A DNA stretch of 64,000 nt from positions 133,659-197,658 of the forward strand of contig JAFQQJ010000040.1 in NCBI GenBank assembly GCA_017411325.1, in the 5' to 3' direction. The position numbers and the translations under genes were made by a program. Under the pieces are notes generated by a model. That model did no database searches and had not been told where the DNA came from. It saw nothing but the letters and a program-made list of their open reading frames with translations. How positions within the stretch are numbered: position 1 is the stretch's first letter; every line of letters starts with the position of its first letter. Shown one piece after another: positions 14,389 through 40,657 of this stretch. This stretch comes from Clostridia bacterium (GTDB lineage: Bacteria > Bacillota > Clostridia > CAKSNL01 > HGM11501).

Positions 14389-14443
14389 ATTGCGACACAT
14401 AAGGTTTAGATGCAAACCTTTTTGGTGTCAAGTTCGTGTCAAG
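14389..14443. repeat. 55-bp direct repeat, copy a (upstream of dsdA)
   Basis: The sequence is attgcgacacataaggtttagatgcaaacctttttggtgtcaagttcgtgtcaag. By hand alignment it matches 17678-17732 at 46 of 55 positions. Confidence 0.85.
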
Positions 14444-14538
14444 TTAATACCCAAAAAATTGTTAACCCATTACAAAAATCTTTTGCTTTATCAAGCATTA
14501 TACTTTCTGCCATCTTATCACATCTATTAATTTATTTC

Positions 14539-14730
14539 AGCTAAATTTTGAACTAAAGTTCAAAACTAAATTATCTCATTTCATTCAATAGCTAAATAAC
14601 TCCTTTGGAGTAGCTAAATTAAATTCGCTTTTGTAGCTGACCGCAAGGGCAATTTAGCTACGAAGTAATTTAGCTGAACTTGTTCAATTTAGCTCGCGGT
14701 AGCGAATTTAGCTGCGTTGCCTTGCAACGC
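14539..14730. repeat. word/mini-hairpin array 1 (AGCTAAAT x3, then AATTTAGCT x4)
   Basis: AGCTAAAT occurs at 14539, 14590 and 14612. Its reverse complement AATTTAGCT occurs at 14651, 14667, 14686 and 14705. Different small stem-loops separate the words: ttttgaac-taaa-gttcaaaa, actcc-ttt-ggagt, ac-gaa-gt, gaa-cttg-ttc, cgc-ggta-gcg and gcgttgc-ctt-gcaacgc. Confidence 0.8.
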
Positions 14731-14989
14731 TCGTGTCAAGCCTGGTGAACAGTGAATAATAAGAACCATCACGAAATATAACGAAATCAAAGATTTCTAT
14801 ATTTCGGAGAACCTTGTTATGCTAAAGCATAATATAGACCTACTATTTTTCCCTTAATTTTTCACTGGATTTTCCTTAACCACTTTTCCTTAGAACCCGC
14901 GAGAATACTGAATTTTCTCGCATCCGATAGCATATGTAAATATCAAAATCGGCAAACTATTCTTTTAAATTGTATGGAATTGACACGAG
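14730..14989. repeat. about 250-bp structured repeat element E, copy 1 (MITE-like, 10-bp terminal inverted repeat)
   Basis: It is bounded by ctcgtgtcaa (14730-14739) and ttgacacgag (14980-14989). The interior matches 16769-17072. It contains the nested hairpin cgaaatata-ac-gaaatc-aaa-gatttc-tatatttcg, the hairpins ttatgc/gcataa and gcgagaa/ttctcgc, AGAACC x3 and TTTTCCTTA x3. Confidence 0.75.
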
Positions 14990-15767: not shown

Positions 15768-15794
15768 ATTGCGAGGCATAAGGTTTAGATGCAA
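15768..15794. repeat. partial copy (left 27 bp) of the 55-bp repeat
   Basis: The sequence is attgcgaggcataaggtttagatgcaa. It overlaps the last codons and stop of cassette P2. Confidence 0.75.
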
Positions 15795-16165
15795 TTAGTT
15801 TTTCGCTTTATAATTAAATGCTTAATTACAAATTCAATCATCATAATTACTAAATAACTAATGCCATAAACAACTGTTGTAATAAAATAAGTTAATTCTC
15901 CTTCCAAATCATACCATATCTGTTTATCGACCAAACTATGATAATATAATTGTCCGTTTATACACATTCCCATCGAAGAAGCTACCAGAATGAGCAAACA
16001 ACCTATCAAAAATTCTTTTCGACTATTGCTTAAAAACAAATTCAAAATTGATACAATAAAAGTCCATATCCAAATTGTTTTCATAAAATCTGTTCCTGCA
16101 CTTCCAAAAACCACACATGGAACTAATATTGAAATGTTTATAACACTTAATAATACTTTTCTCAT
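15785..16165 (-). CDS. hypothetical small polytopic membrane protein (islet cassette P2)
   Basis: ORF 15785..16195. The ATG at 16165 (MRKVLLSVINISILV) follows GAAAGGAG. It has about 4 hydrophobic helices and no recognisable domain. Confidence 0.55.
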   Translation of the reverse strand: MRKVLLSVINISILVPCVVFGSAGTDFMKTIWIWTFIVSILNLFLSNSRKEFLIGCLLILVASSMGMCINGQLYYHSLVDKQIWYDLEGELTYFITTVVYGISYLVIMMIEFVIKHLIIKRKTNCI

Positions 16166-16751: not shown

Positions 16752-17072
16752 TTCGTGTCAAATCAGGAGAACAGTGAATAATAAGAACCATCACGAAATA
16801 TAACGAAATCAAAGATTTCTATATTTCGGAGAACCTTGTTACTCCGTAATAAGAACCATCACCCAACACGAAATCAAAGATTTCTATATTTCGGAGAATC
16901 TTGTTATGCTAAAGCATAATATAGACCTACTATTTTTCCCTGATTTTTTCAACTATTTTTCCTTTAACACTTTTCTTAGAACCCTCGAGAATACTGAATT
17001 TTCTCGCATCCGATAGTGTATGTAAATATCAAAATCGGCAAACTAATGTATTAAATTTTATAGACTTGACAC
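16752..17072. repeat. structured repeat element E, copy 2 (with internal tandem duplication of about 60-68 bp)
   Basis: The first 73 nt from gaacagtgaataataagaacc are identical to copy 1, and the rest is similar by eye. The block taataagaaccatcac...cggagaaycttgtta occurs twice, at 16779-16846 and 16847 to about 16906. The element is bounded by ttcgtgtcaa (16752) and ttgacac (17066). Confidence 0.75.
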
Positions 17073-17677: not shown

Positions 17678-17732
17678 ATTGCGAAGCATAAGGTTTAGAT
17701 GCAACTTATTTTAGTAGCAAGTTCGTGTCAAG
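17678..17732. repeat. 55-bp direct repeat, copy c (upstream of cassette P4)
   Basis: The sequence is attgcgaagcataaggtttagatgcaacttattttagtagcaagttcgtgtcaag. It matches 14389-14443 at 46 of 55 positions and is in the same orientation. Confidence 0.85.
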
Positions 17733-19155: not shown

Positions 19156-19225
19156 CTTCAGCCATAGCCTACTAATTTACATCTTCCGGAAGGAGCAAGC
19201 CCCTTCCCTACAAACTATATATGGT

Positions 19226-19493
19226 ATAAATCCACACGCCGCAGGCGTATTTCATATTGCGAAGCAATATTTCACGCCCGAAGGGTATTTCACAATAGAT
19301 GCAGGTTATTTTAGTGATATTCCAACTTCGTTAGAGTGATATTTTTACAGAGTAAAAGTGATATTATATTTGCCATTAAACTGTGCGAAGCACAATATCA
19401 CTCGGTGTAATCCGAATATAACTGTGCAGCAATATAAACTTGCCAAAGGCAAATATAACTGAAAAAAGACATCCGAAGATGTCTTTTTTCTGG
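19226..19493. repeat. 268-bp word/mini-hairpin array unit R, copy 1
   Basis: It differs from 19608-19875 at 4 positions by hand alignment. Words are TATTTCAC x3, GTGATAT x3, ATATCAC x1 and ATATAA x3, separated by at least 9 small stem-loops. It ends in the terminator at 19462-19489. Confidence 0.9.
19462..19489. terminator. bidirectional intrinsic terminator hairpin (end of unit R copy 1)
   Basis: The sequence is aaaaaa-gacatc-cgaa-gatgtc-tttttt. Confidence 0.6.
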
Positions 19494-19607
19494 CTTTCAC
19501 GTACATAATAGATGCAGTATATTTTTAGTGAAATATCAACTTCGTTGATGTGAAATAATTTCTGTCGAAATTGTGAAATAGAAACCTAACGGTTTCTGTG
19601 AAATGAA
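19494..19607. repeat. array module S (GTGAAATA x4) between the two R copies
   Basis: GTGAAAT(A/G) occurs at 19528, 19550, 19573 and 19598. The copies are separated by atcaac-ttc-gttgat, aatttc-tgtc-gaaatt and gaaacc-taac-ggtttc. The leader cataatagatgcagtatattttta is paralogous to 19290-19313. Confidence 0.85.
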
Positions 19608-19875
19608 ATAAATCCACACGCCACAGGCGTATTTCATATTGCGAAGCAATATTTCACGCCCGAAGGGTATTTCACAATAGATGCAGGTTATTTTAGTGAT
19701 ATTCCAACTTCGTTGGAGTGATATTTTCACAGAGTAAAAGTGATATTATATTTGCCATTAAACTGTGCGAAGCACAATATCACTCGGTGTAATCCGAATA
19801 TAACTGCGCAGCAATATAAACTTGCCAAAGGCAAATATAACTGAAAAAAGACATCCGAAGATGTCTTTTTTCTGG
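19608..19875. repeat. 268-bp word/mini-hairpin array unit R, copy 2 (abuts tRNA-Leu)
   Basis: See copy 1. The terminator at 19844-19871 lies 1 nt from the tRNA CCA end. Confidence 0.9.
19844..19871. terminator. bidirectional intrinsic terminator, terminates tRNA-Leu on the minus strand
   Basis: The sequence aaaaaa-gacatc-cgaa-gatgtc-tttttt lies immediately 3' of the tRNA. Confidence 0.7.
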
Positions 19876-19961
19876 TGCCCGAGACCGGAATCGAACCGGT
19901 ACGACTTTTAACGGTCGCAGGATTTTAAGTCCTGTGCGTCTGCCAGTTCCGCCACTCGGGC
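19873..19961 (-). tRNA. tRNA-Leu, anticodon UAA, CCA encoded
   Basis: The minus-strand read is GCCCGAG-TG-GCGGAACTGGCAGACGC-A-CAGGA-CTTAAAA-TCCTG-long variable arm-ACCGG-TTCGATT-CCGGT-CTCGGGC-A-CCA. It folds as a class II cloverleaf with the anticodon loop CU-UAA-AA. Confidence 0.9.
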
Positions 19962-40379: not shown

Positions 40380-40566
40380 TTCATCCGCAGTAAAATTAAG
40401 TCATTCCCCGATAGCACTCCGCAGATGCGACAGTTCAATACATATTCTGCATTGACCCAGCAGAAAAAACGTGGCTATTTTCTCCGCTTCGGCAAAAGCC
40501 CCTTTCTTTCCCTCTTCTGCCCGAAGTTTTTACCGGAAATACTTATAGCTTTTGCGCCTCTATCTC
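40380..40566 (-). promoter_or_regulatory. lysine riboswitch (L-box) with expression platform
   Basis: The minus-strand read is AGATAGAGGCGCAAAAGCTATAAGTATTTCCGG...GGGAAAGAAAGGGGCTTTTGCCGAAGCGGAG...CTGCTGGGTCAATGCAGAATATGTATTGAACTGTCGCATCT. It contains the conserved L-box blocks GAGGCGC, AGTA, GAAAGG, GCCGAAG, CTGG, TTGAA and CTGTC. AGAT/ATCT can close P1. Confidence 0.8.
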
Positions 40567-40657
40567 TTATTTTTTTATAATTTTACCATAAACGCCATAT
40601 TTCGTCAAGTCTTTTCATCAAACTTTTTGCTTTCATATATTAAATTAACCTTTTTTC

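Follow-up and report, generated by a model that had tools for sequence, protein, structure and literature searches.

A motif that joins TTATTTTAG to the octamer TAGATGCA marks the place where a hairpin-and-word repeat module stops and a conserved 26-base junction unit starts. The motif recurs in a 64,000-nt stretch of Clostridia bacterium DNA (contig JAFQQJ010000040.1), hereafter called the window. It is a composite: TTATTTTAG corresponds to the array's own CTAAAA tail, read backwards, plus a weakly conserved junction arm, and with TAGATGCA the next element begins. The arrays themselves are cassettes, with the 55-bp repeat as the junction unit beside them. We hold this structural reading, of an array end followed by a head and a unit, with high confidence. 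On balance, and with less assurance, we also favor the view that a cassette system bears the motif as its boundary signature and that the head may be read by a trans-acting docking machinery.

Occurrence of the motif and anatomy of array ends

A scan of the window placed TAGATGCA at 14407, 15786, 17696, 19296, 19509, and 19678, all on the plus strand. Extended forms were located at 19294 and 19676 (aaTAGATGCAGgTTATTTTAGTgatat), at 19507 (aaTAGATGCAGtatATTTTTAGTgaaat), and, within a 55-bp repeat, at 17694 (tTTAGATGCAActTATTTTAGTagcaag), and thus every motif position claimed by the initial annotation was borne out. The six octamers were divided equally between the 55-bp repeats (at 14389, 15768, and 17678) and an array block at 19221-19875, against 1.97 expected in the window, and a count of six was reached in 2 of 100 shuffles. 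The copies at 19294 and 19676 are both carried by a 273-bp direct repeat of 98% identity, and thus they are not independent and were counted once.

The octamer was also counted throughout the 2.94-Mb genome, 5.2% of which lies outside long open reading frames (ORFs). Of 107 occurrences, 20 were outside and 87 inside long ORFs, compared to averages of 4.1 and 85.7, respectively, for 8-mers of the same composition. The octamer was therefore not equally frequent in coding and intergenic DNA but was enriched approximately 4- to 5-fold outside long ORFs, where its count ranked 10th among 1,680 same-composition 8-mers, while its count within ORFs was that of the background. When the contexts were read, about 24 of the 107 matches proved to be junction repeats or array ends and the others were ordinary coding DNA. 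Moreover, the extended motif was not confined to one locus, as the 20-mer TAGATGCANNTTATTTTAGT gave six genomic matches with at most two mismatches, compared to none for the reversed control, and three of the six were on other contigs (C36, C10, and C14). Among 401 genomes of the class, exact matches to the extended motif were found in only six, and most of the matches with one mismatch looked random.

The arrays of the window belong to Gut-1 (RF01706), for which a covariance model match of at least 50 bits was taken as membership. The published description treats Gut-1 as an orphan motif and states neither neighbors nor a function (Weinberg et al. 2010, PMC2864571). On the minus strand, the model scored 55.7 bits at 19606-19677 and 55.1 bits at 19224-19295, both above the gathering score, and on the plus strand it scored 47.1 bits at 19526-19609. 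The best Gut-1 matches of the genome were all ordered tRNA, terminator, and array on one strand, and we define the strand of that order, which is also the strand of the islet cassette genes, as gene-sense; in the window, gene-sense is the minus strand. Like the entries of the Rfam family, the arrays that the motif flanks match the model, but the motif itself, although it adjoins Gut-1 matches, lies outside the model. A lysine riboswitch at 40404-40570 (minus strand, 112 bits) is unrelated to the cassette finding.

Read in gene-sense, a complete array consists of a hairpin or terminator, three or four words split by mini-hairpins, the reverse-complement words, and a last word followed by CTAAAA. 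On its 3′ side, the array is followed either by a four-helix-bundle gene, six of which (PF05635) are found in this genome, or, 4 to 10 bases on, by (T/G)GCATCTA. The head is absent from about half of all arrays, which have a four-helix-bundle gene or nothing at their end.

Where present, (T/G)GCATCTA forms the head, that is, the first 8 bases, of a 26-nt cassette-end unit, the remaining 18 bases of which are of several types. Only these 7 to 8 bases are common to all types. The type J unit, with the tail AACCTTATGCCTCGCAAT, is the invariant core of the near-invariant 55-bp junction repeat; type ii has the tail AACCATTCGGCTCTTCCA; type iii has the tail TTWTGTA...GAAAGCCA, with its window copy at 19491-19516; and types v and vi are rarer. 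Units other than J sit behind tRNA-docked arrays, and most of them end in CCA or CA before the next terminator, in the manner in which a tRNA meets the first terminator. In 11 of 17 such cases, the A-run of the next terminator begins exactly 18 nt past the head. The next cassette or terminator usually begins at the first base past the unit, and past the J unit the sequences differ immediately, continuing as a gene leader, as an array hairpin, or as host DNA. The orientation of the head relative to the array was identical in every case. The bases just 5′ of the head covary with the type of the 18-nt tail, and thus the units look inherited whole; no hybrids were seen among the units compared. 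Variant heads (TCATCTA, TGCATCA, and TGCATCCA) and decayed heads (TGCACCTG at C14 and TGCAGCTA in genome G003) also occur.

Cassette stacks in the window and in other genomes

The gene for tRNA-Leu(TAA) (19873-19961, minus strand) is followed by a stack of cassettes, all on the same strand, that starts at the base after its CCA. The first, cassette X (382 nt, 19491-19872), is made up of a terminator, a GTTATAT array, a core, an GTGAAATA array, and the 26-nt type iii unit TGCATCTATTATGTACGTGAAAGCCA (19491-19516, core at 19509-19516), whose final CCA immediately precedes the next terminator. Beyond it lies an older, distally truncated copy of cassette X (19221-19490), which is the sole copy in genomes G006 and G010. 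A type iv anchor, ACTAAAATAACC-TGCATCTA-TT, is found on the minus strand at 19294-19315 (core at 19296-19303) and again, in copy 2 of the 273-bp repeat, at 19676-19697 (core at 19678-19685). Internally, type iv joins a complete GTTATAT/ATATCAC array to a head-less GTGAAATA array, and from its sequence it looks like a type iii unit that lost everything past TGCATCTATT and became fused to the array that follows. Units of type iii were also found elsewhere in this genome, at C30 and C14, as well as in G006, G048, G002, and G009.

The orthologous interval between the tRNA-Leu gene and an MFS gene in G006 and G010 contains one cassette, with the type iv joint and a matching distal truncation. The type iv joint is thus inherited. 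The window carries 382 bases more than either G006 or G010, and if the extra bases are placed behind the CCA of the tRNA, they form a clean cassette composed of a terminator, two arrays, and unit iii. The 273-bp repeat makes other placements equally valid, and therefore the 382-bp difference fits docking at the CCA but does not prove it. In the orthologous interval of G003 there are no arrays, and a different terminator is followed by ATTCACTAAAAC and, 75 nt on, by TGCAGCTATTATGTAATCG, which look like decayed forms of an array end and of unit iii, respectively. Alignment of the orthologous arrays (window 19640-19670 versus L032 of G006 and L034 of G010) indicated that the words were kept while one mini-hairpin was swapped wholesale, ACCCTTCGGGC in the window for GCACTTTGTGC in G006, an example of "ever-changing hairpins."

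In the islet, the junction repeat ATTGCGnnnCATAAGGTTTAGATGCAA lies between co-oriented small genes in three copies, all on the minus strand: J1 at 14389-14443 (unit at 14389-14414, core at 14407-14414), J2 at 15768-15802 (unit at 15768-15793, core at 15786-15793), and the 55-bp J3 at 17678-17732 (unit at 17678-17703, core at 17696-17703). The arms of J1, AAGGTTT and AAACCTT, form a hairpin around the core. The junction 13-mer GGTTTAGATGCAA gave 16 matches in the genome, and more than 100 copies of the junction repeat were counted in other metagenome-assembled genomes (MAGs). Array 1 (14521-14731, minus strand) is built of AGCTAAAT words and opens with the hairpin GCGTTGCAAGGCAACGC, as do junction-type array cassettes, and in another species (L092) an array of AGCTAAAT words adjoins a real junction core.

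One border proposed by the initial annotation fared differently. The octamer CATCTATT is indeed present at 14521-14528, where it had been taken for the motif bordering array 1, but its orientation relative to the array is wrong and the remnant of a four-helix-bundle ORF start lies behind it; the octamer is located just upstream of a short ORF that starts with MAES, the usual start of four-helix-bundle proteins. Because of the wrong orientation, and because AATAGATG occurs nine times in the window, coding DNA included, CATCTATT at this position is probably due to chance and is neither a copy of the core nor an anchor. A short ORF that follows array 1 (14442-14513, minus strand), reading MAESIMLDKAKDFCNGLTIFWVLT up to its stop, looks like an N-terminal four-helix-bundle stump cut by the variable arm of the junction repeat. 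A noncoding "element E" of about 250 bp (window 14730-14989 and 16752-17072) also occurs after the junction repeat in other species, at L037 and L109 in the form ...GTGTCAAGTC.GG.GAACAGTGAATAATAAGAACCATCACGAAA, and thus represents another noncoding cassette type of the same system.

Arrays and junction repeats were also found side by side beyond the window. The full junction repeat adjoins GCGATATA arrays at C6 (twice), C10, and C36 of this genome, and a pair of junction repeats, 237 nt apart, encloses one of the C6 arrays. A scan of species-representative genomes recovered 94 distinct true junction copies, mostly in MAGs of uncultured gut Clostridia from animals, and the J unit was near-invariant across many uncultured Clostridia MAGs. 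About 12 of the 94, from other species, directly adjoin arrays built of at least five different words (TCGATAT, GCGATAT, GTGAAGT, ATGAATT, and AGCTAAAT), and cassettes of approximately 230 nt with the order junction, hairpin, array, and junction recur. In other species, about one quarter of the junction copies precede a conserved block of two hairpins (GGCTCCCTTGTGTAAAGGGAGC, TGTCAGCGTAGCTGACTGAGGGATTGT; seen at L038, L043, L046, L054, L055, L060, L064, L067, L074, L086, and others), which leads into a small ORF with a DUF559-like endonuclease domain (identified by eye), the commonest cassette neighbor.

A set of 45 arrays from other genomes was assembled by means of the Rfam model alone. In their 3′ flanks, GCATCTA was present nine times in the sense orientation and once in the antisense orientation, with approximately one match expected, and all nine sense matches were located right after the last word. 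The nine arrays come from seven genomes and at least five families and are built of five words. Genomes G012, G048, and G049 do not have the 13-mer GGTTTAGATGCAA, and arrays there still end in GCATCTA, indicating that the head is a general property of array ends rather than something that comes with the J repeat. The initial annotation had proposed that the arrays form one family of related noncoding modules together with the 55-bp repeats and the islet. We find that all three do belong to one system, as junctions adjoin arrays, but that the arrays and the 55-bp repeat are not homologous modules. We conclude that arrays are one type of cassette and that they share their stacks with the small AT-rich islet genes.

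Two further loci bear on where units and modules occur. Behind a tRNA-Asn (G000:C4:90157-94963), a degenerate array ends in a unit of type vi, past which come about 4 kb with three ORFs (273, 461, and 343 amino acids) and then two more GCATCTA units, the last of which is of type ii and precedes a terminator; units are thus not confined to array ends. At L004 (G011:C10:49518-50156), three Gut-1 modules in tandem, spaced at a period of 230 nt and each followed by ...CACTAAAGGAGAAGAGATAAGAATGAGG..., are without the GCATCTA head, and tandem stacking therefore occurs without the unit too.

The head as a candidate docking core

Judged from the sequence, the most likely, if unproven, role of the head is that of a docking or recombination core. 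A single docking machinery acting in trans, most likely a site-specific recombinase or a transposase whose gene lies elsewhere, would recognize the shared head of the junction, and the 18 variable bases would fit the unit to its type of stack, either behind a tRNA CCA or between gene cassettes. We tentatively entertain, at lower confidence, the more specific proposal of an undescribed docking system of gut Clostridia, with no integrase in or beside the cassette. In such a system, small cassettes (hairpin arrays, four-helix-bundle genes, and small AT-rich genes) would be inserted one behind another, with tRNA CCA ends and junction repeats as the points of insertion, and 26-nt ends headed by GCATCTA would re-create the docking site at each insertion. 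In the J type the layout is AAGGTT-TGCATCTA-AACCTT, and a head between such inverted arms would resemble the core site of a recombinase. The variable arm pairs with the invariant arm over at least 5 bp around the head in 37 of the 94 junction copies, compared to 0 of 94 controls, and such arms are found in the J type only, the other unit types being without them.

Candidates for the machinery and its intermediates were sought in several places. All-against-all clustering of 510 ORFs from 76 junction loci revealed no recombinase near junctions; no protein family was present in more than 5 of the 76 loci, and none of the recurrent families was a recombinase. For the Y1 (IS200-like) transposase, this genome gave one truncated match (profile positions 46 to 121) and one marginal match. 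Neither a circular intermediate nor a clean empty site was found. Among 2.9 million viral contigs there was one true junction copy and no unit iii, and a metagenome scan by the 3′ end of the tRNA-Leu, an end that is common to unrelated bacteria, recovered no arrays.

The main rival of a docking core is a role at the RNA level, in which GCAUCUA and the tail would serve as a processing, stabilizing, or antitermination signal in a cotranscript with the tRNA or the upstream gene. The four-helix-bundle genes at L006 and L159 follow an array with a ribosome-binding site but no promoter, and thus the array must be transcribed in gene-sense. Moreover, the unit is always on the gene-sense strand, ahead of the next leader, and types ii and iii end in a tRNA-like CCA. 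Despite this support, we consider an RNA role unlikely, as only J folds among the three types that were folded, types ii and iii having no consistent fold; no Rfam family matches the unit; a position weight matrix built from tRNA 3′ ends scores it negatively; and near-invariance without covariation is unusual for RNA structure.

Alternatively, the unit types could share descent only, all deriving from one ancestral cassette end, with the head as its slowest-decaying, functionless remnant. Units that look inherited whole, with 5′ flanks that covary with the tail type, would be expected under such descent, as would a type iv joint that is one event common to three species and the existence of decayed heads such as those at C14 and in G003. 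We nonetheless regard descent without function as quite improbable, given that 7 bases are identical across several families while the 18-nt tails have diverged past recognition and that neither the orientation nor the distance to the next terminator varies.

That the motif is a promoter or a terminator hairpin, serving either the arrays or the next gene, is very improbable. A sigma-70-like sequence that matches at 9 of 12 positions (TTCACG-16-TATATT) overlaps unit iii on the plus strand, but the region contains 23 promoter-like sites compared to 21.5 expected from shuffles, the candidate hexamers are not kept in relatives, and four-helix-bundle genes that have clear promoters are without the head. 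Likewise, a T-run follows the J hairpin on the plus strand, but the J stem is AT-rich, with two G-C pairs, and was not called by the terminator scan; real terminators lie beside the unit and not in it. Finally, a chance likeness between unrelated AT-rich repeats, which might be read from the shuffles that reached six matches, from the recent duplication behind two of the six copies, and from the many random-looking one-mismatch matches to the extended motif across the class, is effectively refuted by position- and strand-specific recurrence in independent genomes.

Some further identities were considered for the unit and rejected. As a mimic of tRNA 3′ ends, it gave log-odds of at most 0 throughout against a position weight matrix of 38 tRNA ends, and only the terminal CCA agreed; with the last 4 nt omitted, comparison to tRNA ends gave P values of 0.007 to 0.3, and the best identities, 13 to 15 of 26, were marginal. 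Sigma-54, sporulation sigma factor, and dif-like readings, checked by eye, misfit in spacing or arms.

Relation to known systems and implications

The stacks resemble integrons and integrase-less clusters of attC sites (CALINs) in several respects. Cassettes are stacked in one direction, most have no evident promoter, and the junction sites differ over most of their length around a short common core, as do attI and attC around GTTRRRY. The J type, with paired arms in 37 of 94 copies, looks like an imperfect palindrome such as attC, while types ii and iii gave no consistent fold. In contrast to integrons, the core is GCATCTA, and the unit, which reads GGTTTAGATGCAA / TTGCATCTAAACC, contains no GTTRRRY, the R′ core that attC sites conserve along with the inverse core RYYYAAC. 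Also unlike integrons, no intI-like gene was found nearby at the 76 junction loci, one junction arm is nearly invariant across species, each genome has many small stacks, some of which start from tRNA CCA ends, and noncoding hairpin arrays act as cassettes.

Three other classes of mobile or recombining sequence offer partial parallels. The core sites of tyrosine recombinases (dif/pdif modules, lox, and FRT) consist of two inverted arms around a 6- to 8-bp spacer, and the J type likewise has inverted arms of 6 to 9 bp and an asymmetric spacer of 6 to 8 bp that gives direction, whereas types ii, iii, v, and vi are without inverted arms. Moreover, pdif sites alternate in orientation, whereas the units described here are all direct. 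As with integrative elements of tRNA 3′ ends, insertions lie at the 3′ ends of tRNAs and are stacked in tandem, and the element end restores a target-like ...CCA followed by a terminator; they differ in that insertion is after the last base and not within the tRNA, the unit does not copy the end of the local tRNA, and the cassettes are 230 to 700 nt long and have no integrase. REP/BIME clusters and REPINs, which are mobilized by RAYT transposases, resemble the arrays as small hairpin clusters behind terminators, with many copies per genome and, putatively, movement in trans, but here the hairpins vary and the linkers are constant, and for a Y1 transposase gene the genome gave just the truncated match, read as a fragment, and the marginal one.

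The searchable literature yielded nothing on the junction repeat, and Gut-1 is described there only as an orphan motif, in 2010. New here are the fixed 26-nt unit, its shared head, and the recognition of arrays as junction-bounded cassettes, and the stacked gene-cassette system is apparently undescribed. A later paper on RNA structure prediction reportedly mentions Gut-1.

Two unexplained repeat families of uncultured gut Clostridia, the orphan Gut-1 hairpin arrays and the near-invariant junction repeat between exchangeable small genes, were formerly separate puzzles and are here reduced to one system, as both share one boundary element and the arrays occur as cassettes between junction repeats. 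Experiments on binding, cleavage, recombination, or RNA processing have an obvious target in the 7- to 8-base head. Should that head prove to be a recombination core, the system would amount to integron-like collecting of genes in a phylum that has few integrons.
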